Assembly (NCBI GenBank): GCA_016839585.1
Contig: JAEOTZ010000050.1
Coordinates: forward strand, 1-64,000
Reading direction: 5' to 3'
From: Promethearchaeota archaeon
GTDB taxonomy: Archaea; Asgardarchaeota; Lokiarchaeia; Sigyniarchaeales; SOKP01
DNA: 64,000 nt
Positions 21,118-40,801 of this stretch are shown one piece after another; position 1 is the first letter of the stretch, and every line of letters starts with the position of its first letter. The notes beneath the pieces were generated by a model, which was not told the origin of the DNA, did not search any database, and saw only the letters and a list, made by a program, of their open reading frames with translations. The translations under genes were made by a program, and so were the position numbers.

Positions 21118-21559
21118 CTTTTATCGTCCCCTCATCTTTAATTGCATTTGATAATCTCTCTACAATGTCTTCAAAATCTCCTACAGCTGTTTCGCCTTCT
21201 GCTGCCCTAGATGTATACTGGTTAATGAATTGATCGCTATATCCTAACTCTTTAAATAACTTTTTCATGAGTTTAATTCTATGCATTGAAAGTATATTTC
21301 CATTAAAAAAGTGGCAAGCTCCTAAACAGCATCCAACACAAGCAACAGCATCTGCCCCATTATTTAATGCATCCATGATCTGAATAGGACCGACTTGACC
21401 AGTACATTGAACTCTTATTATTCTTATTGCCGGATCATATTTCATTCGTGCTACACCTGCAGTATTAGCAGAACCTTGTCCACATTCGTTACACATGAAA
21501 ACAACCACATCCTGAATCTTTCCTTGAATTTCTTCATCCACTACTTCACATTCAGTCAT
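21107..21559 (-). CDS. mvhD: MvhD-type [2Fe-2S] adaptor subunit
   Basis: FMCNEC, IRVQCTG, GADAV..GC..GACHF..GN; ATG overlaps the hdrA stop (ATGA). Confidence 0.9.
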   Translation of the reverse strand: MTECEVVDEEIQGKIQDVVVFMCNECGQGSANTAGVARMKYDPAIRIIRVQCTGQVGPIQIMDALNNGADAVACVGCCLGACHFFNGNILSMHRIKLMKKLFKELGYSDQFINQYTSRAAEGETAVGDFEDIVERLSNAIKDEGTIKDGC

Positions 21560-24502: not shown

Positions 24503-25063
24503 TTAAACTTCCTCCTCTTCTTCCTTTTTTTCCTCTTTAACTGGAGGTAAATCGAACATGTGTTTTTCAATATTTTTTAAATCGCGATCATCTCCCTCTT
24601 GTTTAAACTTAAACGCAGTAGGAGGTAGTTCTTCTAAGCCTAATTCAACCCTTCGTTTTTTTACCTCATCATTTATCGGTACCGCATGTCCATAATTCTT
24701 TAAATAACCTACAACAGCTCTATGATTAGGAGAAATATTCCCTAATTTAGTAGCATAATTTCGCAATTCCATAATTACATCTGTAGGTCTCACATCACGC
24801 GGACACCGTTCATAACATTGATAGCATGTAGTACACAGCCAAATATCAGGATCTTTCAATACCGATAAGTCTCCTAATACAACTTTTCTTACGATAGAAC
24901 GAGTCTTTAAGGCAGTCCATCTACCACTTTCACAACTCGCTGTGCATGTCCCACATTGGATGCACTGCCAAATATTTGATTTTCTTTCAATATTTTTAAA
25001 AAATTCTTTATCAAAATCTTCGTCTGTTTTAAATTCCCTTGGTTCTTCTTCTACATCAGACGT
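24503..25063 (-). CDS. hdrC: Heterodisulfide reductase subunit C (186 aa, probable ACG start)
   Basis: Frame is open 68 codons upstream of the called TTG and contains the first cluster WQCIQCGTCTASC; second cluster WLCTTCYQCYERCP. Confidence 0.9.
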   Translation of the reverse strand, partial: TSDVEEEPREFKTDEDFDKEFFKNIERKSNIWQCIQCGTCTASCESGRWTALKTRSIVRKVVLGDLSVLKDPDIWLCTTCYQCYERCPRDVRPTDVIMELRNYATKLGNISPNHRAVVGYLKNYGHAVPINDEVKKRRVELGLEELPPTAFKFKQEGDDRDLKNIEKHMFDLPPVKEEKKEEEEEV

Positions 25064-25116
25064 TTATCATCACCTTTTTTGAAATATAAAATAAAAAAAA
25101 AAAATTTTAATTTTGT

Positions 25117-25533
25117 TTATAGTGAAACTATTCTTCCACCATCGCTCATTTCTAAAAATGCAGCGGCGCCAACAGGATCTTCAGCGATTTCCATTATATC
25201 TTCATGCTTAATTCCCATTAAATCCATAGTCATCTGACATGGAAATAACTTCAAATTACCGTTTTCAACACCGTCCTTAATCAAACCCCATGGATCTTCA
25301 ATTCCAAATTTTTTCATCCTTTTTCTAAATATTTTTGCTCCCATACCTTTCATAGGAGTAGGCATTCCTGCAACTTTAGGTTTAAATTTTTTTGTTAATA
25401 AATTTAAACCCCAAAAAGTAAAGAAAAAATTCATTTTCATATCCATAGCGTCACCTGTTGAACCAAGGATAGCCATCATTGCAAACTTCTCGAATGACTT
25501 ATCCTTTACAATAAAATTTATTGTTTCAGCCAT
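25117..25533 (-). CDS. DsrE2-like sulfur relay protein
   Basis: FFFTFWGL and PCQMTMDLMG..VGAAAFL motifs; ATG after AAGTGA. Confidence 0.85.
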   Translation of the reverse strand: MAETINFIVKDKSFEKFAMMAILGSTGDAMDMKMNFFFTFWGLNLLTKKFKPKVAGMPTPMKGMGAKIFRKRMKKFGIEDPWGLIKDGVENGNLKLFPCQMTMDLMGIKHEDIMEIAEDPVGAAAFLEMSDGGRIVSL

Positions 25534-25683
25534 TTTTTTCACTTTTTTTTAAATTTTTTTTCAATCTTGTATTTTACTTTTAATTATTTGAGTTAACTAA
25601 TTGTTAACCATGACCAATTTTTTTCAATTCAATTTTTAAAAATTTTCTATTTATTTGCTTTCTTACTTTTATGCCCTTACTTA

Positions 25684-26025
25684 TTACATCCATGAAACAA
25701 TCTTTTGTGAATTATCCAATATATCTATGAGTTCATTATATTCAATTGGTTTGATTTTATCATCGAGATAATCAAGAGATATTCCACGTGCTTTTAAATC
25801 TGGAATCATCGCAAAAATAGTAAGGTTTATACTAAAAAGTTCTTTCATTGATTCGGAAACTTTTCCTCTTGAACTACCGCCTATTACTCCGTCATGTATC
25901 AAAATGAATCCAATTTTTGCACCATCAATAGATTGAGTTTTAACAATTGGAAGCAATCGACTTAACTCATTACCATGTCTAGGACTGAATCCGTATAGAT
26001 AAACTATATTTAAATTCTCTGTCAT
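25684..26025 (-). CDS. dsrH: DsrH/TusB-like sulfur relay protein
   Basis: LIHDGV, DLKARGI, IEYNELID, C-terminal VSW. Confidence 0.85.
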   Translation of the reverse strand: MTENLNIVYLYGFSPRHGNELSRLLPIVKTQSIDGAKIGFILIHDGVIGGSSRGKVSESMKELFSINLTIFAMIPDLKARGISLDYLDDKIKPIEYNELIDILDNSQKIVSWM

Positions 26026-26040
26026 TTTTTCCACCCTCCC

Positions 26041-26409
26041 TTAAAATCTAAAACTTGTGTCTGCATTTGCGATTAATTTCGCAAGGTTAACGATATCTAT
26101 AACCTTAAGATTTTCATATTCAACAAAATCCGCTTCAGTTAAACCAGCATCCTCTAAACCAGTATCTAGAATATAAATTTCTAAATCTGAAAGGTCACCC
26201 ATTTCCAATGGTTCCTCGAAAGAATCTACTCCAACCACGGTTGGATCAGCGTTTTTATTTACAAAGTATACAGCATCTCCCATCAAAACTACTTTACAAT
26301 CAATCTCTTCTCCTAAACCCAAAAAACCAGCTGCTAATCTTAGAGCTTCGCGCGCAGAATTTTTACCAACTGGAGATTGATCAACAATAATAACTACTGA
26401 TTTTATCAT
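26041..26409 (-). CDS. dsrF: DsrF/TusC-like sulfur relay protein
   Basis: SPVGKNSAREALR, VLMGDAVY; positioned between dsrE and dsrH. Confidence 0.75.
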   Translation of the reverse strand: MIKSVVIIVDQSPVGKNSAREALRLAAGFLGLGEEIDCKVVLMGDAVYFVNKNADPTVVGVDSFEEPLEMGDLSDLEIYILDTGLEDAGLTEADFVEYENLKVIDIVNLAKLIANADTSFRF

Positions 26410-26412
26410 TTT

Positions 26413-26781
26413 TTAGCCTCCCGTTCCAAAAATTATTAATTTTTCTGATTCTGCTGTCCAATTCGATAGTTCACCTAAACCCTCCTCTTTCGCTCCATCA
26501 ATAAAACATTGCTCTTTCATTCCACAGAGCCCAATCCATGTAGTGCATCCAGCAACCGGAATCTTGTTTTCATTTATGAACTCTTCTAATTTTTTTGGTA
26601 AATTTCTCACAGTAATACCTGTTTCAATATCTTTTTTTATATTATAGACACCACTCCCATAGAAAAAGATCCCCTTAATTTGATTGCCCTTTTCAAGTAT
26701 AGCTTTACTTAATTGTATCAAGGAATCTGTAGCTTCAAATTTATACGGTTCGGTGCTAATCATTATTGTATAAATTAACAT
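26413..26781 (-). CDS. dsrE: DsrE/TusD-like sulfurtransferase
   Basis: EPY, IFFYGSGVYN, active-site-like AGCTTW, GLGEL. Confidence 0.8.
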   Translation of the reverse strand: MLIYTIMISTEPYKFEATDSLIQLSKAILEKGNQIKGIFFYGSGVYNIKKDIETGITVRNLPKKLEEFINENKIPVAGCTTWIGLCGMKEQCFIDGAKEEGLGELSNWTAESEKLIIFGTGG

Positions 26782-26811
26782 AATCGCTCTAACTCGTTTC
26801 TATTGAAGTTT

Positions 26812-27036
26812 TTATGCTTTTTTAATCATGAATGTAATCTGTTCCCTATCTTCTCTCGATTCAAGCAGTTCATCGCCAGTTCTATTTAAAAGTGCTGGAA
26901 CATCTTTTAATGCTCCAATATCGTCTACGATAAGCTCAAGAGTTTGTCCTGAACTCATTTTCTTCAATTCTTTTTTAGTCATTAAAATTGGCATTGGACA
27001 TTTTTTACCTAATGCATTAAGTGTTATATCAGCCAT
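26812..27036 (-). CDS. tusA: TusA-family sulfur carrier
   Basis: LNALGKKCPMPIL, DDIGALKDV; ATG at 27036 after AAGTGA. Confidence 0.92.
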   Translation of the reverse strand: MADITLNALGKKCPMPILMTKKELKKMSSGQTLELIVDDIGALKDVPALLNRTGDELLESREDREQITFMIKKA

Positions 27037-27080
27037 TTTTTTCACTTTCACTTATTTTTTGTTTCGTTTTTTGATTTTTT

Positions 27081-27222
27081 TTATCACGTAAGAAGTGATT
27101 TTCTATTTTAATTATCACAAATGCAAACTCATATTTAAATATTAATCACATAGAATAAAAATTCTCTAGGATTTTAGCACAAAAAAGAGTTTTATTTATA
27201 AATGAATATCACGAACGCAAAG
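27081..27222. promoter_or_regulatory. Phased operator array between the divergent tusA operon and lrp
   Basis: ATCAC at 27083, 27114, 27145, 27208 and AGCAC at 27176 (31-32 bp spacing); the first is the palindrome ATCAC-N7-GTGAT. Confidence 0.6.
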
Positions 27223-27342
27223 TTTATATTTTTTTAATACTATTTATATTTAGAGATGCTTAAAATGAAATTTAGAAATATTATGCTAAATTTAAGCAAA
27301 TCTTAAGGATTATTAAAAAATGAAAAAAATTGTAGTGATAAC

Positions 27343-27816
27343 ATGGCAGGTATGCCTGAAATAGTAGAATTAGACGATTTAGACAAACAGATATTAAATA
27401 TTATTCAAAATAATGCTAAAGCATCGCTTCGGGATATCGAGAAGGAAATAGATTTAACTACAACCTCAATTCGAATGCGAATCAATCGCTTAAAAGAAAA
27501 AAATGTCATTAAGCAATATATTACACTTATTGATTGCCGTCATTTAGGTTATCGCGAAATGGTAATGGCATCACTTCGAGTAAATTCTTCTTACCCTTTA
27601 GAGGATATTAAAAAAAAAATAGAAGAAATGATAAAAATCAAATATGCCTACATAATAACTGGAGAATATCCAATATTCATTATGGCAAAATGTCTTGATC
27701 ATTCTGATTCAATGGAACTCATTGAAAGACTTCGTAATCTCCCAGGAGTAGAAGAAATTAAGACTCAAATTGTTTTAGATAAAATAAAAGAAGATCCTTC
27801 TGTGATAATACCTTAA
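27343..27816 (+). CDS. Lrp/AsnC family transcriptional regulator
   Basis: LDDLDKQIL..RINRLKEKNVIK HTH plus RAM domain (ITGEYPIF..LPGVEEIKTQIVL). Confidence 0.92.
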   Translation: MAGMPEIVELDDLDKQILNIIQNNAKASLRDIEKEIDLTTTSIRMRINRLKEKNVIKQYITLIDCRHLGYREMVMASLRVNSSYPLEDIKKKIEEMIKIKYAYIITGEYPIFIMAKCLDHSDSMELIERLRNLPGVEEIKTQIVLDKIKEDPSVIIP

Positions 27817-27869
27817 TAGAAATATATTATCTTTTACCATATAGAATTAATATCTTAGTTGACTTTTTC

Positions 27870-28433
27870 TTAATCATTTTTGTCTTCTTCGTTACTGACA
27901 CGTTCCCCAAGCTGGTAGAAATTAAAATCACCGCCCGTAGCCCAAATAATTGGATGAACTTTTCTCCAATCAAGGTTATCCTCTATCAAACACTTAGGAT
28001 CCACATATGACTTGACTACTCTCCCTATGATTCCATCATTAGGATAATAATCCAGGATTTCTGTCACTTCACACTCCATATTTATAGGACATTCGCGAAT
28101 CATTGGTGCGGTTTTTAATTCTCCATAAAATATGTCAAAAAGAGATCCCTTATCAAAATCCCTACCAGACCTATTTCCACAAATATTTGTTTCAGTTAAA
28201 AGATCTATTGATGGGATATTAACACTAAATGTCATATTTTCGTGAATTCCAATCCGTGTATAACGTTCCTTATACAAACTAAAGAAAATATACTTCCCAA
28301 AATCAAAAGGGCAGATATATCCGATTACTAGAAAGTTTGGATGATTATTAACTCGTGCCCCCACTAATACTACTGGTAACGGACTTAGCAGATTTCCTTC
28401 AAGTTCTTGCTTTTTCATTTTAGTTTTGCTCAT
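27870..28433 (-). CDS. Flavin reductase-like (flavoredoxin) protein
   Basis: PLPVVLV, FSVNIP, CGNRSGRDFDK, APMIRECPINMEC. Confidence 0.88.
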   Translation of the reverse strand: MSKTKMKKQELEGNLLSPLPVVLVGARVNNHPNFLVIGYICPFDFGKYIFFSLYKERYTRIGIHENMTFSVNIPSIDLLTETNICGNRSGRDFDKGSLFDIFYGELKTAPMIRECPINMECEVTEILDYYPNDGIIGRVVKSYVDPKCLIEDNLDWRKVHPIIWATGGDFNFYQLGERVSNEEDKND

Positions 28434-28638
28434 TTAAATTCATCTTTAATATATATAATATTTCTCTATTATTCAAATCTTTTTACTCAGAAGTTCTGAA
28501 TAACTTTGAACTTTATTAAAAGTTTATATTATAATTCTATTTATATTTAAAGAAGTTAAAAATGAATATTAGAAAAACAAAACTTGTTTAAGAATAAATT
28601 AAGAATTATTAAAAATTAAAAAATAATAAAGTGATAAT

Positions 28639-28842
28639 ATGTCGGGCATGCCTGAGATAGTAGAATTGGACGATTTAGATAAACAAATATTAAATATAAT
28701 TCAAAATAATGCTAAGGCATCGCTTCGCGATATCGAAAAGGAAATAGATTTAACTACAACCTCAATTCGAATGCGAATCAATCGCTTAAAAGAAAAAAAT
28801 GTCATTAAGCAATATGTTACACTTATCGATTTCAAAATCTAA
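28639..28842 (+). pseudogene. Truncated (HTH-only) duplicate of the Lrp gene at 27343
   Basis: First 64 codons give 62/64 identical aa, then a stop; about 120 bp upstream is also homologous. Confidence 0.7.
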
Positions 28843-28943
28843 TTTCATTTGATTCAAAGCTTCATCTTCATTAATATTGTCAAATTCTATCAATATAACA
28901 TCTTAGGTTTTTTTATTTCAAACTATAATTTGAAATAGGTTCT

Positions 28944-29213
28944 TTATAATTTTCTCAGTTTTTTAATTTTTTCTTTACTGACTTTCTTTATTTCTTTCTT
29001 TAATAGTATAATAGCACTGTTTAATTCTGCCTTTTTTGATTTAAATTTAGAAATATGTGAATGTTCAATCTTTTTTGATTCATGAGCAATTTGTTTTTCA
29101 ATTTGCTTCAATTCATTATGTTTTTTTGCTAATTGAGCTTCGAGATCTTTCAATTTATTATTGTATTCAGATTTTATTTTATTAATTAAGTCCATTTTTG
29201 AAGGGTTAGCCAT
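28944..29213 (-). CDS. Small Lys-rich coiled-coil hypothetical protein
   Basis: 89 aa, heptad-like charged helices. Confidence 0.6.
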   Translation of the reverse strand: MANPSKMDLINKIKSEYNNKLKDLEAQLAKKHNELKQIEKQIAHESKKIEHSHISKFKSKKAELNSAIILLKKEIKKVSKEKIKKLRKL

Positions 29214-29611
29214 AACATAACCTAAAATAAAATTTAATTATTAGAAACAAATTTATCCTAAATGAAATAATAAAATTAGAAATTTATATTATTCCTAAAT
29301 AAAAGATCATTCTATGATACTCGTTTGATCCGCTTTATTATTAGACATAAAAATTTTCCAACAATAGCACCCGAAGATGATCCAATCTTATTAAACATGA
29401 TAATCTCTGCTTTGTCTTTTTAAAACCTTATTAAATCACTTTATTTTTAGATTTTCTAAAAATTTCTTATATTTCTTCAATATTTCAAAACTAAGACTTT
29501 TTTAGTTTCATTGAGGAATACTTAAAATATATGCTTTCTTAGAATAGAGTTAAGTAAGATTCTTTTCTCAAAGAATTTACCTAATTAAACTTTATTTAAA
29601 AAGAATCCAAT

Positions 29612-31114
29612 ATGCCGAATGAAAATAAAATTCTTTTTGTTCAAATCTATGCTGGAGGAGGTATTGCTTCAGAGTTTTTATATAGAAAACCATCGCAGTA
29701 TAGAGAAGAACTTCTCAATACTTATCCTGAAATGAAAAAATGGGCAAAAGAAGAAATATTTAATCAGATCCGAGAATGGCCAAATGAAATTGATATTCGA
29801 TATGAAGCAGATGCTATTAATCTTTCAGGTCGTTTTTTAGCAGATAATATAATAACACCTTCAAAAGTTATCGACATACCTGTTAATCCAGAACTTTTAA
29901 TTTCTGAATTGGAAAAGGATTCTTATACTCATGTAGGGTTTTCAATAATCTCTAATGATTACACGAACTTTATAAAGTGTGCTCAAGCAGTTAAAACTTA
30001 CGATCCATCAATAAAAACTGTCGCAGGAAGTACAGGAGCCATGTTTGAAGAAACTAAGAATTATGTTGATTATATATGTATTGGTAGAGGAGTCCCATTC
30101 CTAAGAAAGTTATTTAATGAAAAAATTGACGACCCTTTTCATCTCTCTATTATGCCTAATCGACTTCAATGGAGATATATGAATCTTGAAATCCCGAACG
30201 AATTATATAGAATTGTGACTAAGATTGGGTGCCCTTTAACATGCGATTTTTGCACAACTCCTAAAATGTACAATAACGAATATACAGGAGAACTATTTTC
30301 TCCTAAATATGTTCATGATGCATTAGTAGAATTCAGAGAAAAACTTAGTAAAGATAAACTACTTGTTTATTTTGAAGAACCTACTTCTTTATATTCATTA
30401 AAATGGTGGTATGAATTTTTTGATCTATTTAAAGAGGATTATGGAGATTTTGGTTTTATTGTTTATAGTATTACATCGGTCTTGAATAAATTAAACCTTG
30501 ATAAAATATCGAAATATGCTGCCAGACTTCATATTGTTAATTTTGGAATTGAAAGTTTTAATAAAAATTATAATAAGAACATTAAAGTCGATATAAGATC
30601 CTTAATTCATAGATTATCTGACTATGGTATTATAACAAATCCCAATTATATTATTGGTTTTGATTTTGATTCTAAAGAAAGCGTTTGGGACGATATTAAA
30701 AAATTAATAGATCTCAGAGCTGAGGTAAATACTGTTCTTCATTTACATCCTCATCCTATGACTGATATTTGGGAAGAATTATATTCTCAAAATCGTTTAC
30801 TCGATATTCCACCCGATTTTTATTTTATACATGGATTTCAATCATTTATTCATCCTCATTTTAAACCAGGATTTGAAGATATCCTTCCTTTACTCTGTGA
30901 TATTTATGATTTTATTGAAAAAGAAACTGGAGATAAAATCTTATATGTTGCTCAGACTATGAAAAATTTATTAAATCACACAAATCATCCAAATCTTTTT
31001 AAAAAGGAAATACGAAGTTTATTATCAATTGGAAAATCATTATATCCAAAATGGAAGGAATTCTTTAAACCTAATGAAAGACAAGATTCAAATTTTTTAA
31101 ATCATTTAAAATAA
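29612..31114 (+). CDS. Radical SAM protein, probably with a B12-binding-type N-terminal domain
   Basis: GCPLTCDFC (CxxxCxxC), FGIESF, YIIGFDFD; N-terminal HVGFS..VAG..DYICIGRG. Confidence 0.8.
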   Translation: MPNENKILFVQIYAGGGIASEFLYRKPSQYREELLNTYPEMKKWAKEEIFNQIREWPNEIDIRYEADAINLSGRFLADNIITPSKVIDIPVNPELLISELEKDSYTHVGFSIISNDYTNFIKCAQAVKTYDPSIKTVAGSTGAMFEETKNYVDYICIGRGVPFLRKLFNEKIDDPFHLSIMPNRLQWRYMNLEIPNELYRIVTKIGCPLTCDFCTTPKMYNNEYTGELFSPKYVHDALVEFREKLSKDKLLVYFEEPTSLYSLKWWYEFFDLFKEDYGDFGFIVYSITSVLNKLNLDKISKYAARLHIVNFGIESFNKNYNKNIKVDIRSLIHRLSDYGIITNPNYIIGFDFDSKESVWDDIKKLIDLRAEVNTVLHLHPHPMTDIWEELYSQNRLLDIPPDFYFIHGFQSFIHPHFKPGFEDILPLLCDIYDFIEKETGDKILYVAQTMKNLLNHTNHPNLFKKEIRSLLSIGKSLYPKWKEFFKPNERQDSNFLNHLK

Positions 31115-31227
31115 AAATACTCTATTATCATTCCAGAGTAAATTATTATGTAAAATCAAGAAACTTGAAGATATGAAATTTGATGTGATAGTCTTAAAGA
31201 AACAACAATATGATAAAAATGTTCAAT

Positions 31228-32025
31228 TTAACTTTTTCTTCTAGTTTGAACATAAAATAATATGACGAAAAGATTTGTCAGAAAATGAAATATCCAAGGA
31301 TATAATAACCCTAAATTTATTAATGCATAAAAATAAATTAAAGATGATATTAGAGTAGAAAGCACATGACCCAGATTTTTCGAAGCAGAATAATGTACTA
31401 TTCCAAATAGACATGAAATAAAAAATATGCTAAAAACAAGATCCCAATTAAGGGAATAAATCAAAACACTTAAAAATAAACATCTGTAAATAAATTCCTC
31501 CACAAAGGCTCCAAGAGGAAAAAGAACTAATAAAAGAATTATTTTCTTGTTGGTTATATCTTGAGTAAAAAATTCAAATATCTCATCTCCCTTCCAATCT
31601 GTATTAACTTTCATACTTATCGAAAAATAGATTTTAACACCTATTAATTTTAGAAATATTAGTGAAAACATAAGTAGGATTAAAAAAAGGTTATATTGAT
31701 GTTTAATACCTATTAAATCATAAAAATCTATCAAAAAAGGGGGAGTAAAAGCCTCATAAAAAAAAATTATATCTAAAAGAAAAGTTATTGGAATTAAAAT
31801 TAGTAAGATATAAAGTATTTTAGCTCCTAATTCTATCCCCTCTTTTATATTTTTAGTTAAAGAGTATAATGTCAAAAATAAAATTGAAAAACAAATTAAA
31901 ATCAGAATAGGAATAAAGTCAAATGTTGAATAAAAAAACCACAATAAGAAAAATAAAAAAATGATTAGATTATAAATAATATTATTTTTAATTCTAACCT
32001 CTGTTTTGTTCTCGTCAGTTTCCAT
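31228..32025 (-). CDS. CPBP (Abi/Rce1-like) intramembrane glutamic endopeptidase
   Basis: EEFIYR, FGIVH, HFLTN motifs in a multi-TM protein. Confidence 0.85.
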   Translation of the reverse strand: METDENKTEVRIKNNIIYNLIIFLFFLLWFFYSTFDFIPILILICFSILFLTLYSLTKNIKEGIELGAKILYILLILIPITFLLDIIFFYEAFTPPFLIDFYDLIGIKHQYNLFLILLMFSLIFLKLIGVKIYFSISMKVNTDWKGDEIFEFFTQDITNKKIILLLVLFPLGAFVEEFIYRCLFLSVLIYSLNWDLVFSIFFISCLFGIVHYSASKNLGHVLSTLISSLIYFYALINLGLLYPWIFHFLTNLFVILFYVQTRRKS

Positions 32026-32134
32026 TAAAAATTATCTTTGACTTTTGTGTTTAATTTGTATTAGATCTACTATCCTTTATTATTTTTTAATCTATTTACA
32101 AAATCCTATAATGATTATAGGATTATTTTGTATA

Positions 32135-32222
32135 CTCCTTTGGAATAATATAGAAAATCTTTTTTGGAGGTTTTAATACTTTTTTTACTTTATCAACCTC
32201 AAAAGTTCACATTGGAACTGAG
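32135..32222 (-). pseudogene. Degenerate remnant of the 3' end of the sagB-like gene at 33819
   Basis: Translates SVPM*TFEVDKVKKVLKPPKKIFYIIP versus SVPIGAFEDDNVKKVLKLPKKIEPLYIIP in the intact gene. Confidence 0.8.
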
Positions 32223-32272
32223 AAAGCAGTTAACTAAATTTTGAAAGATGAAAATAAATTGATTAAAAGAAA

Positions 32273-33613
32273 TTATTTATAATTTCTTTTCTTTAGTGAA
32301 ATTACTGTTATAATACCAATTACAAAGAAAAGCACTAATAAGTAATACCCAGATATTATTTGGTCTTTTTCTGTTTTTTCTACATTATATTTCACCAGAA
32401 CCATATCATAAAGTCCTGCACCGAAACTATATGTGTATCCTGCAATATAAACATTGTCAGACCAATCCAATATCACTTCTTCGCTAACATCATTATTACT
32501 TCCACCCCACATGTGCAACGATTTCAGCTCGCCGGAACTGCTATATTTCGCCAGAATTATCTCATCTAATCCCACCCCAGGATTGTCTATGTATCCCGTA
32601 ACATAAATATTATCTGAAGAATCCACTGCCACTCCCCTCGCATATACATCATCAGTCACTCCCAAAGAACGATTCCATAACTGTATACCAGAATTGTCAT
32701 ATTTCGCTATAACTATATTATAACTTCCCCCACCAAAACTTAAAGTGGTTCCTATTAGATAGACATTGTCAGAAGAATCCACTGCAACTCTCCCATCGTA
32801 GTCTCGACTACCCCCACCCCATGTGCGATTCCATTGCTGCACACCAGAACTGTCATATTTCACTAGAACTATATCATCATTTCCTGCTCCAAAACTCCAA
32901 GTATATCCCGCAAGATAAATATTGTCTGATGAATCAATACCTAATCCCTGGCTAAAATCAAGACTACTCCCACCCCATGTGTGATTCCATTGCTGCACAC
33001 CAGAATTATCATATTTCACTAGAATTATATCAGAACCTCCCTCCCCGAAGCTCTCTGTTCTCCCTGCAATATAAACATTGTCTAAAGAATCCAGGGTCAC
33101 TCCCCAGGCACTATCATCATTAATCCCGCCCCATGTCTTATTCCATTGCTGTATACCGGAACTGTCATATTTTACTAGAACCAAATCAAAACCTCCTGCC
33201 CCGAAATTGTCCGTATACCCTGCAAGAAAAATATTACCTGACGAATCTACTATTACTCCTCTGCCAGAATCAAGATTACTCCCACCCCATGTGCGATTCC
33301 ATTGCTGTATACCAGAACGGTCATATTTTACTAAAACCATATCTCTATCACCTGCTCCATAACTCCAAGTATCTCCCGTAAGATAAATATCGCCTGATAA
33401 ATCCACTGCTACCCCCCTGCCATAATCATTATCACTTCCACCCCATGTGCGATTCCAATCATTTACATTTGAATTGCTAGCAGAAATAAGGGGCAAAATA
33501 TTTTTAATTTCTTTATCATTACAATTATTAAGAGAAGTGGTATTTCCTTGAAATATACAACTAAAATGCAGGATTAAAATAAATATTATTAAATAGGTTT
33601 TTTTAATTTTCAT
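32273..33613 (-). CDS. SBBP-repeat beta-propeller surface protein with Loki-CTERM-like anchor
   Basis: About 7 repeats of WNRTWGG..D.G.GVAVDSS.NIY.AG.T.SFGAG..D.VLVKYD; C-terminus ISGY-TM-KKR. Confidence 0.85.
   Translation of the reverse strand: MKIKKTYLIIFILILHFSCIFQGNTTSLNNCNDKEIKNILPLISASNSNVNDWNRTWGGSDNDYGRGVAVDLSGDIYLTGDTWSYGAGDRDMVLVKYDRSGIQQWNRTWGGSNLDSGRGVIVDSSGNIFLAGYTDNFGAGGFDLVLVKYDSSGIQQWNKTWGGINDDSAWGVTLDSLDNVYIAGRTESFGEGGSDIILVKYDNSGVQQWNHTWGGSSLDFSQGLGIDSSDNIYLAGYTWSFGAGNDDIVLVKYDSSGVQQWNRTWGGGSRDYDGRVAVDSSDNVYLIGTTLSFGGGSYNIVIAKYDNSGIQLWNRSLGVTDDVYARGVAVDSSDNIYVTGYIDNPGVGLDEIILAKYSSSGELKSLHMWGGSNNDVSEEVILDWSDNVYIAGYTYSFGAGLYDMVLVKYNVEKTEKDQIISGYYLLVLFFVIGIITVISLKKRNYK
32500..33460. 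repeat. Intragenic ~156 bp tandem repeats (propeller blades)
   Basis: CCCATGT core recurs near 32818, 32974, 33130, 33286 and 33442. Confidence 0.8.
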
Positions 33614-33818
33614 TTTAATTATTTCTTTAGATCTTCATTTTATTAATATATATCTAGACAAATTTTTTATAAAAATTTTATGTACCAAGAATACGAAAAA
33701 GTTGAATAAAGACTAGTTATAAATCATAATTATTAAATAACTGTAATTTTTAATTAAAAAAATAATACAAATTACTCAAATAAATTATCAAAAAAATTTC
33801 ACAATTTCTATGAAATAA

Positions 33819-34391
33819 TTAAGGATAACCTATGGGAATAATATAGAGAGGTTCAATCTTTTTTGGAAGTTTTAATACTTTCTTTACATTATCATCCTCA
33901 AAAGCTCCTATTGGCACTGAAGCTAAATCTAAAGCAACAGCTTCTAGATGTATATTTTGAGCGCAATGTCCAACTTCCATAAATACATATCGTATTCCTC
34001 TTTGACGATAATTCCAAGTTGTTCTTGAATATTCAGCACAAATAATAATATTCATATATGATTCAGCAATAGACTCTTGATCCCAAGACGCAGCTGCTAA
34101 TTTACCTTCTAATTTCTCCTCAGTAACTAATTCTAAAGAATGTCTATCAATATCATAGTGAAAAAAGCCTTTATCCTTTATTGTGACATAAATCTCTAAA
34201 GGATATGTTGCGCCAGCAGAGGGTACAGTTCTTTTATATCCCTTTTTTCCTTGTGTTGCCCATAGAATCTGTGAAATCTTCTCAATTTCAATACTTTTCT
34301 TTTTATAATGTCTTACACTCTCACGTTCATAAATACATTCTTCAAGACTTTTAATCCCCTTTAGTTTTGGCTTTGGAAGTTGGATTGCTAT
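33819..34391 (-). CDS. SagB/ThcOx-family dehydrogenase (190 aa, probable ATA start)
   Basis: Frame is open 112 codons upstream of the called ATG: IQLPKP..ERESVRHY..RTVPSAGATYPLE; continues into EVGHCAQN. Confidence 0.85.
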   Translation of the reverse strand: MAIQLPKPKLKGIKSLEECIYERESVRHYKKKSIEIEKISQILWATQGKKGYKRTVPSAGATYPLEIYVTIKDKGFFHYDIDRHSLELVTEEKLEGKLAAASWDQESIAESYMNIIICAEYSRTTWNYRQRGIRYVFMEVGHCAQNIHLEAVALDLASVPIGAFEDDNVKKVLKLPKKIEPLYIIPIGYP

Positions 34392-34500
34392 TTTTTAACA
34401 CCTTTAATTTAAGATTTTATAATCTAATAAAGAATATTCAATTAATATTTATTTCCTTGATAATAACAAGTTTTATTTTTATCAAATGAAATAAGTTCTT

Positions 34501-34854
34501 ATGGCATCAGAACCTATTTTGGAAGGCATGTTCCAAGAATGGAATGATTTAAATAAACAAGCCCAAGAATCTCTTGGACAATTTGATTTCTCTAAAATTA
34601 AGGAAATAAGAAAAAAACAGAAAAAACTTGAAGATTCTATATTTAATGTACTTAAAGATAATGCGCCAGATAATATTAAAAAGATATTACCTGAAGTTGG
34701 TGAGATGGAAGTTGGTTTTGAAAGTGAAGGTAATATTTTTTATTTTGTAATGTATGATCCTGAAGATGAGGATGATGAAAATCCAAAACTTATTGCAATC
34801 ACTCTTGATGCTAATAAAAAGGTTGATATGATTAAAGATTTTGAAATTGAATAA
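34501..34854 (+). CDS. Hypothetical acidic protein
   Basis: 117 aa ORF with ATG start. Confidence 0.65.
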   Translation: MASEPILEGMFQEWNDLNKQAQESLGQFDFSKIKEIRKKQKKLEDSIFNVLKDNAPDNIKKILPEVGEMEVGFESEGNIFYFVMYDPEDEDDENPKLIAITLDANKKVDMIKDFEIE

Positions 34855-34891
34855 CTAAAAGAAAAAAGAAAATAAATTAGAAATAAGTTAC

Positions 34892-36421
34892 TTAAAACTT
34901 ATCCGAATCATCATACCATTCTGGAAACCACTGATAATACTCTTTTGGGAATGCTTTCTTTAATCCCAAGTATGTTGCTTTAACTAATACCATCTTACCA
35001 GAACGGTCTCTATGGGAAACAACGAGCTTTTGTTTTTCAAGTGATTCTAAAATCTTTCCAATAGTAGACCTACTACCCCCGATATCTTCCTTTATATCAT
35101 CAATAGTCATATATATTCCTGGATTAACTTTATAATCGTGAGCAATAACTTTTAAAATATTTTCCTCGTTTACATCTAATCCTTTAAATTTCGACTCTCT
35201 TTTTGAGATAATGGGTGCATTAACCTCATCATTCCATCTTAATCTGATATGTTTATTATACATGGGTAACATTGAACTAAACCGATATATTATCATTTTT
35301 TGAACTTCTGTTGTACCTGCTGCTATTTCTCCTATTTTTGATTCTCTTAGTATTCTCTCTACAGGAAGGAATCTAGTGAGGCCATCCCCTCCAAGGACCT
35401 GAATCGCTTTAATCCCAACTTCTCGCACGAATTCTGTATTTACCATTTTTGCAATGGAAGCTTCAATCATAGGCTCTTTACCATCATCTAATAATTTGGC
35501 ACAATGATAAGAAAACAATCTGGCTAATTTTGCTTTAGTAATAATATCTGCAATTTCATTCTGAATTCCAGGGAATTGAATCGTAGCTCGATTAAATTGT
35601 ACTCGTCGTTTTGTATAGTAAAAGAGTAAAGAAACGATGTCTTCGAATAGCCCTCCAAACACAGTGGCACCAATCAACCTTTCAAAATTCAGTCCTGCCA
35701 TCATCACATTCCAACCTTTCCCTACGGTACCAATCCGGTTTTCATCTGGTATTCTTACATTTTCAAAGTCAATATATCCATTTGGTACGTTATCAAATCC
35801 AATTAATGGATTAATTTTTTCAAGCGTAAAACCAGGTCTCCCTTTTTCTACCATAAAAGAGGTCAAATGACCATATTGTTTACGAATAGAGGGATCTTCA
35901 TTAGTTTTGGCATATATAAAATATCTGTCTGAAACACCGGCACCTGTAATAAATCTTTTTTTACCATTTATTACCCACTCATCTCCATCTTTTTCTGCAG
36001 TCGTAAAAATATTTGCGGCATCAGATCCGGCAAAAGGTTCAGTGATACAGAGTGCACCTAATTCATTCCCTTTTGCGATTTTATGAAGCCATTTTTCTTT
36101 TTGCTTTTCAGTCCCAAATCTTAGAATTTGCTCTGTACCTGCCAGCATACTCACAGTAAAGACGTGCCCTACTGCATAAAGACGTCCTAATTGCTCAGCA
36201 ACTATACATGAGCCGGTAGCACCTAATCCCATTCCTCCATACTCTCTTGGAACACCTACTCCAAAATATCCCTCATCAGCAACTTTTCTCACCAATGGCC
36301 AAGGAAACTTAGAATTCCAAAAATATTCTTCAGCTTCTTCAAAATTATCTTCTACAAATTGAGACACCTTTTTAGCAACTTCCTTTTGCTCATCTGTCCA
36401 CCAAAAAAACGGTTCAATCAT
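34892..36421 (-). CDS. Acyl-CoA dehydrogenase with C-terminal winged-helix domain
   Basis: ITEPFAGSD, NGKKRFIT, LNFERL, RRVQF, QVLGGDG, GTTEVQ; tail MTIDDIKEDIGGSRSTIGKILESLEKQKLV..KATYLG. Confidence 0.9.
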   Translation of the reverse strand: MIEPFFWWTDEQKEVAKKVSQFVEDNFEEAEEYFWNSKFPWPLVRKVADEGYFGVGVPREYGGMGLGATGSCIVAEQLGRLYAVGHVFTVSMLAGTEQILRFGTEKQKEKWLHKIAKGNELGALCITEPFAGSDAANIFTTAEKDGDEWVINGKKRFITGAGVSDRYFIYAKTNEDPSIRKQYGHLTSFMVEKGRPGFTLEKINPLIGFDNVPNGYIDFENVRIPDENRIGTVGKGWNVMMAGLNFERLIGATVFGGLFEDIVSLLFYYTKRRVQFNRATIQFPGIQNEIADIITKAKLARLFSYHCAKLLDDGKEPMIEASIAKMVNTEFVREVGIKAIQVLGGDGLTRFLPVERILRESKIGEIAAGTTEVQKMIIYRFSSMLPMYNKHIRLRWNDEVNAPIISKRESKFKGLDVNEENILKVIAHDYKVNPGIYMTIDDIKEDIGGSRSTIGKILESLEKQKLVVSHRDRSGKMVLVKATYLGLKKAFPKEYYQWFPEWYDDSDKF

Positions 36422-36735
36422 CCTTATTTATCCTCATCAATTTTACAATATTAAAATGTTCTTTAATTTTATAAGAAATAATAGTAAATTGTATTTCAAT
36501 TTTCTTTAATAATGCAGTTTTTAATCAGTTTTTTAAAATTATTTCGATAAGATAATATAAAATCCAATTGTCCTTAAAATAGAATCTTTGACAAAAAGAT
36601 TTAACTACTGTTATTTCTTTATTTTTAATATTTATACCCGATTACACTAAAAAATGAAGTGAATCTAAGATCTCTATTCCCGCATCTTTACGAGAAGGAC
36701 CAAGAACAACAAATGTTTTAGCTAAAAAAAGATAT

Positions 36736-38283
36736 ATGATTTTATATTTTATAATTATAACTTTAAGTGCTCAACCATCAATTTTATGGATTTGGTACTT
36801 CTGGCAGCATTTTCCTAAACTGGAGCTAATGTTTTATTTGCTTTTTCCTTTAGTTTTTTTTATAGGTATTATTCTTTTAATTTTGAGTTCTATTATAGTT
36901 GCAAAAGTCGCGGTATTTTTGGTAAATTTAATACATAAACCTAAAGAAGGTGTTTTTTTTAGAAACAAAAAGGATAAAGATTATTGTTATTGGAGTTTAA
37001 GATCTGTTATAAAAAAATGGCCTGTATGGCTAGCTCGTCAATTATCTTTACCTTTACTCGAATCTATAGCTTTTAAAATTTTAGGAGTAAAAACATCTTT
37101 TTCTAATTCCTTAAATGAAGGGTGGGTTGATTGTGAATTTGTTGAATTTGGTAAAAATGTAAAAATTGGTCAAGGTAGCCTTATAATGTCTAATATAATT
37201 GTTCAAGATAAATTAATCATAAAAAAGGTGATAATTAAAGATAATGTAATTATTGGTGCTCATGCTGTCGTTTTACCCGGAACTGTAATTGAACCAAATA
37301 CTATTCTTGATGTAATATCTATGACAACCATTAATCAATATCTTGAAAGTGATTCAGTATATCGGGGCGTACCTGCTAAAAAACTAGAGGAAAATAATTT
37401 AAGCAAAAATGTAGAAGCACTTAAAACCTTAATTTTTGAGGAAGCTATTGAAAAAGAGTTTAATGAAGAAGATTTAAGAGCATATGTAAAAGAATTATCA
37501 GTACCATTTCATTTTTACATTATTACCGGGTGGGTTATTATAGGATGTTCATTTATAATACCTGGATTTCTATTTATCCTATTTCTTTTTGGGGTGTTAA
37601 TTCCACATACCTTATCAACAACATTATCGTTAGAATCACTCTTGAGTATAGATGTAATTGTACTTTCATTATTAACTCCTTTAATTTTTATCGGAATATA
37701 TTTATTGCATTTATTTTTTGTTGCTCTATTTACAAAATGGTTCTATAAATTAGCAGATAAAAGAGGACCAGAGCAAGGCGTATATGATCGAAACTTAGAT
37801 GAATCTTCTACAGTCTTAGATTATTATCATTTTAGATCCTTTCTATTCAAATACCCAGTTTTCGCATTTATACGTTCTCCATTTCCGTGGTTAATAAATT
37901 GGGAATTAAAATTCATAAGATCTAATCAAGTTGGAAAAAATACAATTTTTGAGGAAGTTTTTTTCCATAGTCATATTGATTTTGGGAAAAATTGCTATAT
38001 TGGGACATTTGCTCATATTACTAATCATTTAGTTGATGGTGTATATGGGGAAGAAAATTTAACTTTTTTTGGAGCAGATGTTGGCAATAATTGTATTTTT
38101 AGTGCTTCAAATGGATCGCTGCCAGGATTGGAAATGGGAGATAATTCAACTATATTACCTATGTGTGCGACAATTAAATATGATAAGCTAGGAAAGAATG
38201 GAATATATGGTGGATTCCCTGCAAAAAAACTTGATATGAACGAAATTAAAGAAATTTTTGGAGGAGAATATGATGGAGAGTGA
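36736..38283 (+). CDS. Membrane protein with two TM-pair + left-handed beta-helix repeats (start possibly 36670)
   Basis: Two blocks of TM helices, each followed by hexapeptide repeats ending in GVPAKK / GFPAKK. Confidence 0.75.
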   Translation: MILYFIIITLSAQPSILWIWYFWQHFPKLELMFYLLFPLVFFIGIILLILSSIIVAKVAVFLVNLIHKPKEGVFFRNKKDKDYCYWSLRSVIKKWPVWLARQLSLPLLESIAFKILGVKTSFSNSLNEGWVDCEFVEFGKNVKIGQGSLIMSNIIVQDKLIIKKVIIKDNVIIGAHAVVLPGTVIEPNTILDVISMTTINQYLESDSVYRGVPAKKLEENNLSKNVEALKTLIFEEAIEKEFNEEDLRAYVKELSVPFHFYIITGWVIIGCSFIIPGFLFILFLFGVLIPHTLSTTLSLESLLSIDVIVLSLLTPLIFIGIYLLHLFFVALFTKWFYKLADKRGPEQGVYDRNLDESSTVLDYYHFRSFLFKYPVFAFIRSPFPWLINWELKFIRSNQVGKNTIFEEVFFHSHIDFGKNCYIGTFAHITNHLVDGVYGEENLTFFGADVGNNCIFSASNGSLPGLEMGDNSTILPMCATIKYDKLGKNGIYGGFPAKKLDMNEIKEIFGGEYDGE

Positions 38284-39172
38284 AAAATCTATTTCAAGAA
38301 TCGAAGATATTAAATCGATCGATATAAAAAAAATACCTATAACAACTAATGTTTTTACTTGGAATTATGTGGGAGTAATTCTCTTCCTATTATTACATAT
38401 TTTATCCTTTATGATGCCTTCTGTGATGATTTTAACTTTTTATAGTTTTGCGATGGATTCGAATTTCTTTCACTGGCGTATTTTAGTTATAGGTGTTGAT
38501 ATTTTAGTATGGTGGGGATCTTATCTTCTTATTAGTTTGCTTTTTGGAAAGTTTATTTTAATAATTTTAAAACTACTTCATAGACCCAGAGAAGGTCTTT
38601 TTAAAGTAAATACTCATGATAGAGATTACTACTTTTTTTGTTTAAGAGTAACTGTGAAAAAATACATCTTTTGGATATGGAATAATTTTTGTTTTCCCTG
38701 GGTAAACAATTTTGCATTCAAAATGTGTGATATGAGAGCAGATTTTAAAAGTACTATGTTTGATGGTTGGAGTGACGTTGAATTTATTGATTTTGGAAAC
38801 AATATAATGATTGGACAAGCTGCCCAAGTTTTTTCAAGTATTATTATTAGAATTGATAATATAGACTATCTTTTAATTAAAAAAGTAATTATAGGAGATC
38901 ATGTTGTACTTGGAGCAAATTGTATCGTTACTCCCGGTACTATTGTTTGTAAAGGAACAACCTTAGGTGTGTGGACAGTTACTCATATTAATCAAATTTT
39001 GGACCCATATTGGATTTATATTGGAAATCCAGCCAGAAAATACCAACCTGTTCAAAAAGCAATTGAAGATAGTAAGAAACAAGCAGTAAGAAGAGTTGTA
39101 GATACAGGTGAAAGAACCCAATTTGATGTCCACCAATTCATACGAAAAAAAAAAGTCAACAAAAGTAACTAA
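38270..39172 (+). CDS. Membrane protein with one TM-pair + left-handed beta-helix repeat
   Basis: HRPREGLF..DYYF, VIIGDHVVLGANCIVTPG, YIGNPARK; overlaps the upstream paralog; ATG after GGAGGAG. Confidence 0.75.
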   Translation: MMESEKSISRIEDIKSIDIKKIPITTNVFTWNYVGVILFLLLHILSFMMPSVMILTFYSFAMDSNFFHWRILVIGVDILVWWGSYLLISLLFGKFILIILKLLHRPREGLFKVNTHDRDYYFFCLRVTVKKYIFWIWNNFCFPWVNNFAFKMCDMRADFKSTMFDGWSDVEFIDFGNNIMIGQAAQVFSSIIIRIDNIDYLLIKKVIIGDHVVLGANCIVTPGTIVCKGTTLGVWTVTHINQILDPYWIYIGNPARKYQPVQKAIEDSKKQAVRRVVDTGERTQFDVHQFIRKKKVNKSN

Positions 39173-39234
39173 GATTTAAATGGTAAGAAATGGAACGTTC
39201 AAGAAAAAATGATTAAAAACAGAGATAATAAATA

Positions 39235-39924
39235 TTAATAAAAATCTTCTTTATTTTCTTTTTTTTTAAGTGCTTTCTTTTCTAACATTTTTGAATATAC
39301 CTCCCATTTATCTATTTCACCTGGTTTTTTCTCAGAAATAATAAAAGTACAGCATTCTGCTCCTGTAGGAATTGTTTTTGTGAATTCTATTTGATATTCT
39401 TTATCTAATATATTAGAATCTCTAAATGCGTTTATAATTCCTTGTACTAAGTATCTTTGAACTCTACAATCAAAAGCTGAATACACATCTTGTAGTGGAC
39501 ACCATAAGATATCAAATGAACATTGTTTATCGTTATCTATTCGTGGATCTTCTATAGAGGTCCATGCTTGTGTGTTTATAATTGTTGCTAAAAAACTCAT
39601 CAATTCTATAGGGCTTATTTCTAATGGAATAGTAATATCCTTTATTATTTGTTCTCCTACCATATATCCAGTTTTTATTAGTGCTTCATTTACAGCTTTT
39701 TGACCTTCTATTCCAAATCTAGCTTCATTCTCTTTTAAAATATTAATTACTCCCATGGACATAAACAGCCCAAATTGGAGTAAGGATGTTGGATCAAAAT
39801 CTTTTCGGTTTAAAGCTTTTTCTTTAAATTGATCTAACGCTTCTTTAAAAGGTTCGCCTAATTTAGACCTATTCCAATTTGTTTCTGTACGTTTTCCTCC
39901 TTTTAATATACCTTTTTTTATCAC
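39235..39924 (-). CDS. ATC-hydrolase/V4R-like family protein
   Basis: WCPL..DC..G..FTKTIPTGAECCTF pattern. Confidence 0.6.
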   Translation of the reverse strand: MIKKGILKGGKRTETNWNRSKLGEPFKEALDQFKEKALNRKDFDPTSLLQFGLFMSMGVINILKENEARFGIEGQKAVNEALIKTGYMVGEQIIKDITIPLEISPIELMSFLATIINTQAWTSIEDPRIDNDKQCSFDILWCPLQDVYSAFDCRVQRYLVQGIINAFRDSNILDKEYQIEFTKTIPTGAECCTFIISEKKPGEIDKWEVYSKMLEKKALKKKENKEDFY

Positions 39925-40054
39925 TATTTATCTCTCATAAGTATAAATTTTATCTTTTAATATTCTAAATAATTAACTAACAAAGAAATAATTTAATATT
40001 TAAGTTAAAAATATTTAAAATTTAAAAATAAGTTGAGTAATGAGGTGAATTGAT

Positions 40055-40801
40055 ATCTACATAGTAGTGCTGCTACGACATGGAGAAAGCACTTGGAATA
40101 AAGAAAATAGATTTACTGGATGGACCGATGTGGATCTTTCAGAAAAAGGAATTGAAGAAGCGGAAGAAGCTGCTAGATTATTAAAAGAAGGAGGTTATAC
40201 GTTTGATATAGCCTATACATCTGTACTGAAAAGAGGTATAAGAACTCTATGGATAGTTTTAGATCATATGGATTTAATGTGGATACCTGTCTATCGTTCA
40301 TGGCGATTAAATGAAAGACATTATGGAGCATTACAGGGTTTTTATAAGGCTAAAATGGCAGCAGAAGTAGGTGAAGAGCAAGTACTTATTTGGAGAAGGA
40401 GTTATGATACCCCTCCACCCGCTCTTAAAACGACAGATCCCAGATATCCAGGAAATGATCCGATATATAAAAATTTAGATCCAAAGGATATACCACAAAC
40501 AGAATGCTTAAAAGATACAGTTGAGAGATTCTTGCCTTACTGGCATGATGTAATAGCACCAACTATTAAATCTGGAAAAAGAGTGCTGATATCTGCCCAT
40601 GGAAATAGTTTGCGTGCATTAGTAAAATATTTAGATAATGTATCAGAAGAGGAAATAGTGGGTTTAAATATTCCTACAGGGATTCCCCTTATTTATGAAC
40701 TTGATGATGATTTAAAGCCAATAAAACATTACTACCTTGGAGAAGCTGAGAAAGTGAAAGAAGCAATAGAAGCTGTAGCAGCTGAAGGAAAAGCAAAGTA
40801 A
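40055..40801 (+). CDS. gpmA: 2,3-bisphosphoglycerate-dependent phosphoglycerate mutase (probable ATC start)
   Basis: [39 protein letters not shown]. Confidence 0.95.

Follow-up and report, generated by a model that had tools for sequence, protein, structure and literature searches.

Near-cognate start codons behind Shine-Dalgarno motifs in a Lokiarchaeia genome: a probable family-level trait suggested by comparative sequence analysis

The question raised by this locus is how four conserved genes can be translated when none of them has ATG, GTG or TTG at the position where its protein begins. The genes lie in a window of 64,000 nucleotides (nt) that opens contig C37 (JAEOTZ010000050.1) in the metagenome-assembled genome of a Promethearchaeota archaeon (Lokiarchaeia, Sigyniarchaeales; GCA_016839585.1; 3.45 Mb, 29% GC; G000 below), and encode a heterodisulfide reductase subunit C-like protein (hdrC), a nitroreductase-family protein, a cofactor-dependent phosphoglycerate mutase (gpmA) and a hexapeptide-repeat membrane protein. 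It is proposed that these four intact genes are, with high probability, translated from the near-cognate codons ACG, ATA, ATC and ATC, respectively, which would be selected through positioning by a Shine-Dalgarno (SD) sequence, and that the family to which the organism belongs carries such initiation as a heritable trait. An earlier sequence-only reading had placed the starts of hdrC, the nitroreductase gene (there called sagB-like) and gpmA at a near-cognate codon exactly 7 nt after GGTG, which agrees with the sequence and the frames, and had named the fourth site as a candidate. Homology of the starts was assessed by searching each gene in 25-40 related genomes and then aligning the 5' ends.

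The hdrC gene (24503..25063, minus strand) has 186 codons including the start ACG at 25063-25061, which stands immediately past a TAA stop (stop-to-stop frame 24503..25063, minus strand). Its SD is GGTG at 25074-25071, part of GGTGAT at 25074-25069 (minus strand; the listed feature, 25071..25076, extends 2 nt upstream), and 7 nt separate GGTG from ACG. The first ATG, GTG or TTG of the frame is a TTG at residue 69, and the two-cluster ferredoxin domain (Fer4) occupies residues 33-91. Within the genus the codon at the same aligned position is ATG in six species and ACG in nine; the six ATG-type species read GTGATGAT(A/T)A ATG TCT GAT GTA, and the ACG type is otherwise identical. The same arrangement of GGTG, seven nucleotides and ACG (GGTG-N7-ACG, where N7 denotes the spacing) is seen in an independent public Logan contig from a different sample. 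Among the nine ACG-type genes the ratio of nonsynonymous to synonymous divergence (dN/dS) is 0.03-0.14 at dS 0.4-1.5, and by this measure hdrC with its ACG is under strong purifying selection. On the hdrC-hdrB tree ACG is spread over the whole genus, down to the deepest branch, while ATG takes up three or more derived positions; ACG appears to be the ancestral hdrC start in the genus, with at least three changes to ATG. The GGTG is intact in 10 of 10 ACG-type copies versus one of six ATG-type copies, the remaining ATG-type genes having AGTG or less.

Two features of the surroundings of hdrC may be added. A four-codon open reading frame (ORF), ATG ATA AAC GTC TGA (25056-25070, minus strand), abuts the GGTG and overlaps the ACG out of frame; it is also present in ATG-type hdrC orthologues and probably represents SD and spacer and nothing else. 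Directly upstream of hdrC-hdrB lie three DsrE/DsrF/DsrH-like genes and a DsrE_2-family gene (25117-26799, minus strand), and the order DsrE_2-hdrC-hdrB is repeated in the public contig L295.

The nitroreductase-family gene (33819..34391, minus strand; stop-to-stop frame 33819..34394) begins with ATA at 34391-34389, two codons past the upstream stop and 7 nt after the GGTG of its SD (34399..34402, minus strand). Its first ATG is residue 114, and the Pfam Nitroreductase domain, matched over the whole profile, extends from residue 21 to residue 190. All 22 genus orthologues have ATG at the homologous codon, against ATA here. Contigs of a second sample from the source study stop at 34350 and restart at 34391, and a related strain from another study carries a 1-nt insertion behind 34390; the population may vary right at the nitroreductase start.

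The start of gpmA (40055..40801, plus strand) is ATC at 40055-40057, preceded by the SD GAGGTGA at 40042..40048 (plus strand) with 7 nt between GGTG and ATC. The homologous codon is ATG in 27 orthologues, ATA in one genome (G002) and TTG in another (G004). From the aligned start the protein reads M-Y-K-V-V-L-L-R-H-G, with the His_Phos_1 domain beginning at residue 6 of the frame. The sole nearby canonical codon is GTG 40067, four codons downstream and 19 nt from the SD; it is GTA, GTC or GTT in orthologues, and starting there leaves two residues before the catalytic RHG motif. The strong SD of gpmA is found in this genome only, the ATG-type relatives lacking a comparable one. Because nearly all relatives have ATG, we regard the nitroreductase and gpmA starts as recent, genome-specific changes from which expression is presumed.

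At the fourth site, the hexapeptide-repeat membrane protein (36670..38283, plus strand) starts with ATC at 36670-36672. Its SD-like AGTGA (36658..36662, plus strand) is weaker than the others, with AGTG in place of GGTG and a spacing of 8 instead of 7 nt to the ATC. The codon is ATT in 13 genus orthologues, in one of them directly past two stops, which brings ATT or ATC to 14 species in total, and paralogues carry ATG (one GTG) at the homologous codon, giving M-S-V/I-P. The ATG at 36736, the likely choice of a gene finder, corresponds to Leu or Ile in the orthologues. The candidacy of this site is upheld, with AGTG and a spacing of 8 nt. A paralogue of the gene (38240-39172, plus strand) overlaps its end by 44 nt; candidate starts of this paralogue are ACG 38240 (4-nt SD match), TTG 38258, or an ATG ATG pair further in.

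Since orthologues or paralogues have their ATG opposite each of the four near-cognate codons, all four occupy the initiator position, and from the following codon onward the protein continues unchanged in every case. No canonical start yields a complete protein: domains would be cut in hdrC and the nitroreductase, and the downstream codons of gpmA and the 36670 gene are not conserved.

Is the phenomenon confined to these genes? Two scans of G000 were carried out. In the upstream profile of its ATG genes the SD optimum is GGTGAT at -11..-6, and SDs are mostly weak, GGTG at N7 preceding just 14 of 1012 confident ATG starts. In the first scan every GGTG of the genome was located and the codon at spacings of 3-12 nt examined; the codon had to open a frame of at least 100 codons no more than 10 codons past an upstream stop, canonical starts being excluded both upstream of the tested codon and in the 15 codons after it, and in-frame neighbour codons at N4 and N10 of the same GGTG sites served as control. 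In these otherwise startless ORFs the N7 codon is a near-cognate (ATT, ATA, ATC, ACG or CTG) in 23 of 28 cases versus 10 of 55 at N4 and N10 (Fisher p=2.9e-8). The counts at N7 are ATT 9, ATA 7, ATC 3, ACG 3 and CTG 1, with only 5 for the other 54 sense codons together, and AAG and AGG do not occur (0). Near-cognates are also more concentrated at the optimum than canonical starts, N7 accounting for 23 of 41 near-cognates but 37 of 130 canonical codons among N5-9; this tie to an SD at fixed spacing does not fit start selection by eukaryote-type scanning. A second scan with a register-aware SD score, in which the excess of near-cognates over background was summed over SD matches 5 nt long or longer, showed that the excess increases with SD length and totals about 40-55 genes. 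Near-cognate starts would thus amount to a lower bound of roughly 1.5-2% of G000 genes. The sequence-only reading had counted three such starts in about 55 genes and considered this far above expectation; the excess over chance stood, whereas the rate proved a local high.

A Pfam scan covered 40 of the 43 best near-cognate candidates, and 15 of these 40 have a domain whose beginning precedes any canonical codon of the frame. They include, with ATT, ribosomal protein L7Ae, a TFB zinc ribbon, ThiF, GFO/IDH/MocA and Roadblock proteins and, further along contig C37, an HdrD-like CCG protein; FlpD/MvhD has ACG and Oxidored_q6 CTG, and there are seven others. The start of an Arf/Ras-like GTPase whose N-terminus is extended by a long stretch is ATT in G000 (C5:85921-87894) and ATA in another genus (L260-L294, G084:C10; ILRQVYIYKG...), and therefore the near-cognate start of this Asgard small GTPase is conserved across genera.

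The lineage distribution was compared in four genomes, G000 being scanned whole and the comparators in part (0.4-1.2 Mb each). Behind GGTG at N6-8, near-cognate and canonical starts number 35 versus 94 in the 3.45 Mb of G000, about one third of starts, and 9 versus 15 in 0.7 Mb of G084, which belongs to another genus of the same family (29% GC). The sister family, represented by 1.2 Mb of G032 (31% GC), gives 2 versus 48, and another order, represented by 0.4 Mb of G050 (30% GC), 0 versus 18. The difference between the family and G032 has p=1.4e-4, a value to be read with the reservation that kin are not independent. Because the AT-rich Lokiarchaeia G032 and G050 give almost none, the signal is not made by the scan itself, and on these counts near-cognate initiation looks like a family-level trait.

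How might such codons be selected? We propose that the SD of the mRNA, with the core GGTGA(T), would pair with the 3' end of 16S rRNA and set the codon 7 (+/-1) nt downstream into the P site, where the ordinary initiator Met-tRNA (CAU) would accept a near-cognate with one mismatch. The outcome would be a full-length protein, probably at lower yield. At least about 40-55 genes of G000 (1.5-2%) would start in this way, with the codon preference ATT > ATA > ATC > ACG > CTG and with AAG and AGG essentially unused. Weak codon and strong SD are probably functionally coupled, to judge by the near restriction of near-cognates to the optimal spacing behind strong SDs and by the decay of the SD after reversion to ATG. 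The sequence-only reading had spoken of relaxed, SD-positioned start selection. Its SD positioning is supported by homology, conservation, enrichment and lineage; the relaxed fidelity is not, normal machinery with SD compensation fitting equally well.

The gene for initiation factor aIF1 (SUI1) itself belongs to this picture. The single aIF1 gene of G000 lies outside the window (C73:9248-9583, minus strand) and starts with ATT; no ATG, GTG or TTG precedes the CX2C...CXC zinc knuckle (ICPICSFPKELCIC; motif as in PMC6237735), which aligns from residue 3 of Methanocaldococcus jannaschii aIF1. The ATT lies about 10 nt past a conserved GGTTGTGA element, a longer spacing than the N7 optimum elsewhere. 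The start is kept across the family as ATT (ATC in some genomes), and the homologous codon is ATA in some families, TTG in the genus of G032 and ATG or TTG in a further family. AUU is a codon that aIF1 itself rejects in vitro (PMC4705826, PMC8211752), and the ATT start therefore recalls the autoregulation of bacterial infC. An infC-like feedback on initiation stringency could be imagined here, although this is speculative. A near-cognate aIF1 start was also considered as a sufficient cause of the trait and rejected: G032 fits, having TTG and few near-cognates, but G050 does not.

In an aIF1 alignment of 20 genomes the family stands apart from every other family sampled at two columns. Column 60 is Lys or Arg in the family versus Ala, Ser or Thr elsewhere (KAKKKCASGG), and column 82, directly after GDHR, is Phe or Leu in the family versus polar or basic residues elsewhere. 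The GDHR motif is where classical yeast eIF1 Sui- mutations map, and we take the column next to it as a lead and not as a result. Tentatively, then, start-codon stringency might be a tunable global regulatory variable: aIF1 feedback could set the translation of a near-cognate regulon of several dozen genes, and the family-specific substitutions beside GDHR could have lowered the threshold. HdrC, MvhD and the HdrD-like protein, all of energy metabolism, as well as TFB and L7Ae could be among the members of such a regulon, an assignment no less tentative.

As for the initiator tRNA, a loose pattern search for its anticodon arm returned mostly noise and one good match, on contig C16 of G000 (minus strand, about 470 nt from the low end). 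This candidate begins AGCGGGG..., has the anticodon arm GGGCTCATA/ACCC, and shows a CAU anticodon, A1:U72 and a GGG/CCC stem; two inserts, each some 25-29 nt long, split it. The genome is rated 99% complete, yet ARAGORN detected 18 tRNA genes and Rfam 24, and because so few are detected at this completeness, most tRNA genes are apparently hidden by introns.

Several other explanations of the four starts have to be weighed against SD-positioned near-cognate initiation. A dedicated change of decoding, either an extra initiator tRNA with another anticodon or a low-stringency aIF1 or aIF2 specific to the family, is compatible with it and, though unlikely, the most credible of them. The family specificity of the trait, the two aIF1 columns and the failure to detect most tRNA genes, presumably owing to introns, would suit such a change; yet one canonical CAU initiator candidate is present, the use of several codons is more readily explained by a single tRNA tolerating mismatches than by a new anticodon, and the aIF1 columns come from related sequences. 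Start-codon decay, by which ATG would be lost to mutation towards AT under the weak selection of slow-growing archaea in sediment and the genes would be silent or dying, is far less probable. It draws on the ATA of the nitroreductase gene and the ATC of gpmA, which are unique here while about 22-27 relatives keep ATG, and on the AT-ward direction of changes from ATG to ATA and ATT at 29% GC. It has to contend, however, with four intact ORFs and with the ACG of hdrC, which opposes AT bias and is kept in nine species at dS up to 1.5 and dN/dS below 0.15. The ATT is likewise kept in 14 species and, in aIF1, across a family; AAG and AGG are equally reachable by mutation but essentially absent; the essential genes L7Ae, TFB and aIF1 are affected; and similarly AT-rich relatives do not show the pattern. 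An ATG in all close relatives, which the sequence-only reading had named, together with absence of the proteins, as refuting near-cognate initiation, is nearly what was found for the nitroreductase gene and gpmA, but not for hdrC (nine ACG) or the 36670 gene (14 ATT/ATC). Slightly less probable still is initiation at a downstream canonical codon to give N-terminally shortened proteins, as public annotations assume. Gene callers do pick such codons, and gpmA has its GTG four codons on, but HdrC would lose its first [4Fe-4S] motif and the nitroreductase over half of its fold, the N-terminal stretches that would then go untranslated show protein-level conservation among relatives, and the later codons (the GTG of gpmA, the ATG at 36736) have no properly spaced SD and are not conserved. 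Least probable of all is an assembly or sequencing error, or an AUG supplied at the RNA level by removal of a bulge-helix-bulge (BHB) mini-intron, by frameshifting from ATG 25070 or by editing. The genome is indeed a metagenome assembly, an out-of-frame ATG sits inside the SD of hdrC, and in one run the contigs are interrupted between 34350 and 34391; but the same ACG and ATT recur in many independently assembled genomes and in the Logan contig, and errors would need to strike start codons behind strong SDs specifically. The geometry of SD and start is collinear with that of ATG-type orthologues, with neither room nor need for an intron, and BHB-intron rescue at the four sites is ruled out on this ground. 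Translation of hdrC from ATG 25070 with a +1 frameshift was likewise dismissed, as that ATG abuts the SD (spacing 0) and the same letters occur in ATG-type orthologues.

Some observations weigh against SD-positioned near-cognate initiation as proposed, or loosen its links. A search of the assembly for the 16S rRNA 3' end (CTGCGGCTGGATCACCTCC, up to 3 mismatches) gave no match, and because that end is absent from the assembly, the anti-SD was deduced from the upstream profile of ATG genes. The nitroreductase ATA and the gpmA ATC, though both ORFs are intact, are unique to this genome and could be recent, mildly deleterious mutations. In G050 aIF1 apparently starts with ATA, there being no canonical codon before the zinc knuckle, yet 0 near-cognates were found in 0.4 Mb; because G050 has such a start without the genome-wide trait, the near-cognate start of aIF1 would be older than the expansion and not sufficient for it. 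A second initiator tRNA may hide among the undetected tRNA genes. Finally, translation from all these codons is deduced from comparisons between genomes, the runs listed as carrying this DNA including none of RNA.

Near-cognate initiation as proposed here has partial counterparts in known systems. Relative to AUG, initiation at near-cognates runs to about 1-3% in E. coli (10.1101/063800) and, behind extended SDs, to about 10-30% in S. aureus (PMC13009471); individual bacterial cases are E. coli infC (AUU) and S. aureus infC (AUA), cvfC1 (AUU), ccpN (AUA) and citZ (AUA) (PMC13009471; PMC4705826). The starts described above resemble these in being of the AUU/AUA/AUC type, in their strong and well-spaced SD, in the lower yield to be expected and in having been missed by annotation, and those of hdrC and the 36670 gene also in their conservation in relatives. 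They differ in number, bacteria having a few such genes per genome and G000 at least 40-55, in including ACG and CTG, and in belonging to an archaeon with aIF1, aIF1A and aIF2 and not IF3. Bacterial infC, which encodes IF3, is autoregulated through its AUU start (Butler et al. 1987, as summarized in PMC4705826). Like infC, the fidelity-factor gene aIF1 starts with ATT, ATC or ATA, both family-wide and in several further families belonging to the class; in contrast, aIF1 is unrelated to IF3, any feedback is putative, and a near-cognate aIF1 start is seen also in G050, where the genome-wide trait is lacking. Autoregulation of eIF1 exists in eukaryotes. Eukaryotic Met-tRNAi reads CUG, ACG, GUG and other near-cognates (PMC4705826), and in both settings single-mismatch codons are used, AAG and AGG are avoided and the factors e/aIF1 and e/aIF2 are homologous; the eukaryotic start is, however, found by scanning and Kozak context, whereas here SD pairing at a fixed distance would position it. 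In ribosome profiling of Haloferax volcanii about 30% of putative alternative initiation sites were near-cognate, and the authors left these out of consideration as potential false positives (PMC7261190); those sites are mostly alternative, unlike the sole starts of conserved housekeeping genes considered here. In the literature searched we found no description of near-cognate or other non-canonical starts in Asgard archaea or Lokiarchaeia, and near-cognate initiation at this scale was not reported there for any prokaryote.

Annotation is affected as well. Public HdrC entries of 117-139 residues, one cluster of which has 52 members, begin internally (MLEDPDIW...) and give no Pfam hit, in line with the systematic truncation that the sequence-only reading had predicted. 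In contig L295 the HdrC call takes as its start a GTG inside the gene, 200 nt past the GGTG-N7-ACG, leaving a false intergenic gap of 254 nt. Because gene callers allow only ATG, GTG and TTG, at least 1-2% of the family's proteins would be truncated in or lost from databases. Such truncation, as in the public HdrC without its first iron-sulfur cluster motif, skews domain inventories, structure predictions and metabolic reconstructions, and it is with such gene callers that eukaryote-like proteins are sought in Asgard genomes. The trait sits in the archaeal group nearest to eukaryotes, and the initiation factors of this group share ancestry with those governing eukaryotic non-AUG initiation; if the regulon suggested above were real, archaea would have in it a counterpart, and perhaps a forerunner, of the eIF1/eIF5-controlled near-cognate initiation of eukaryotes. 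The contrast between families at similar GC, with the trait present in one and nearly absent in the other, also offers a natural experiment on what sets start-codon stringency.

Elsewhere in the window, a secreted or anchored protein (32273-33634, minus strand) is built of repeats of about 45 residues, WNRTWGG...D.G.GV..D, which gave many false joints in public-contig mapping. The TTG starts ascribed by the sequence-only reading to metG, an hdrA-like gene and a SpoU/TrmJ-like gene hold, as do the gene names. Both metG (7366..9417, plus strand) and the hdrA-like gene, which encodes an iron-sulfur flavoprotein (21556..23586, minus strand), have their TTG behind a 7-nt SD match.

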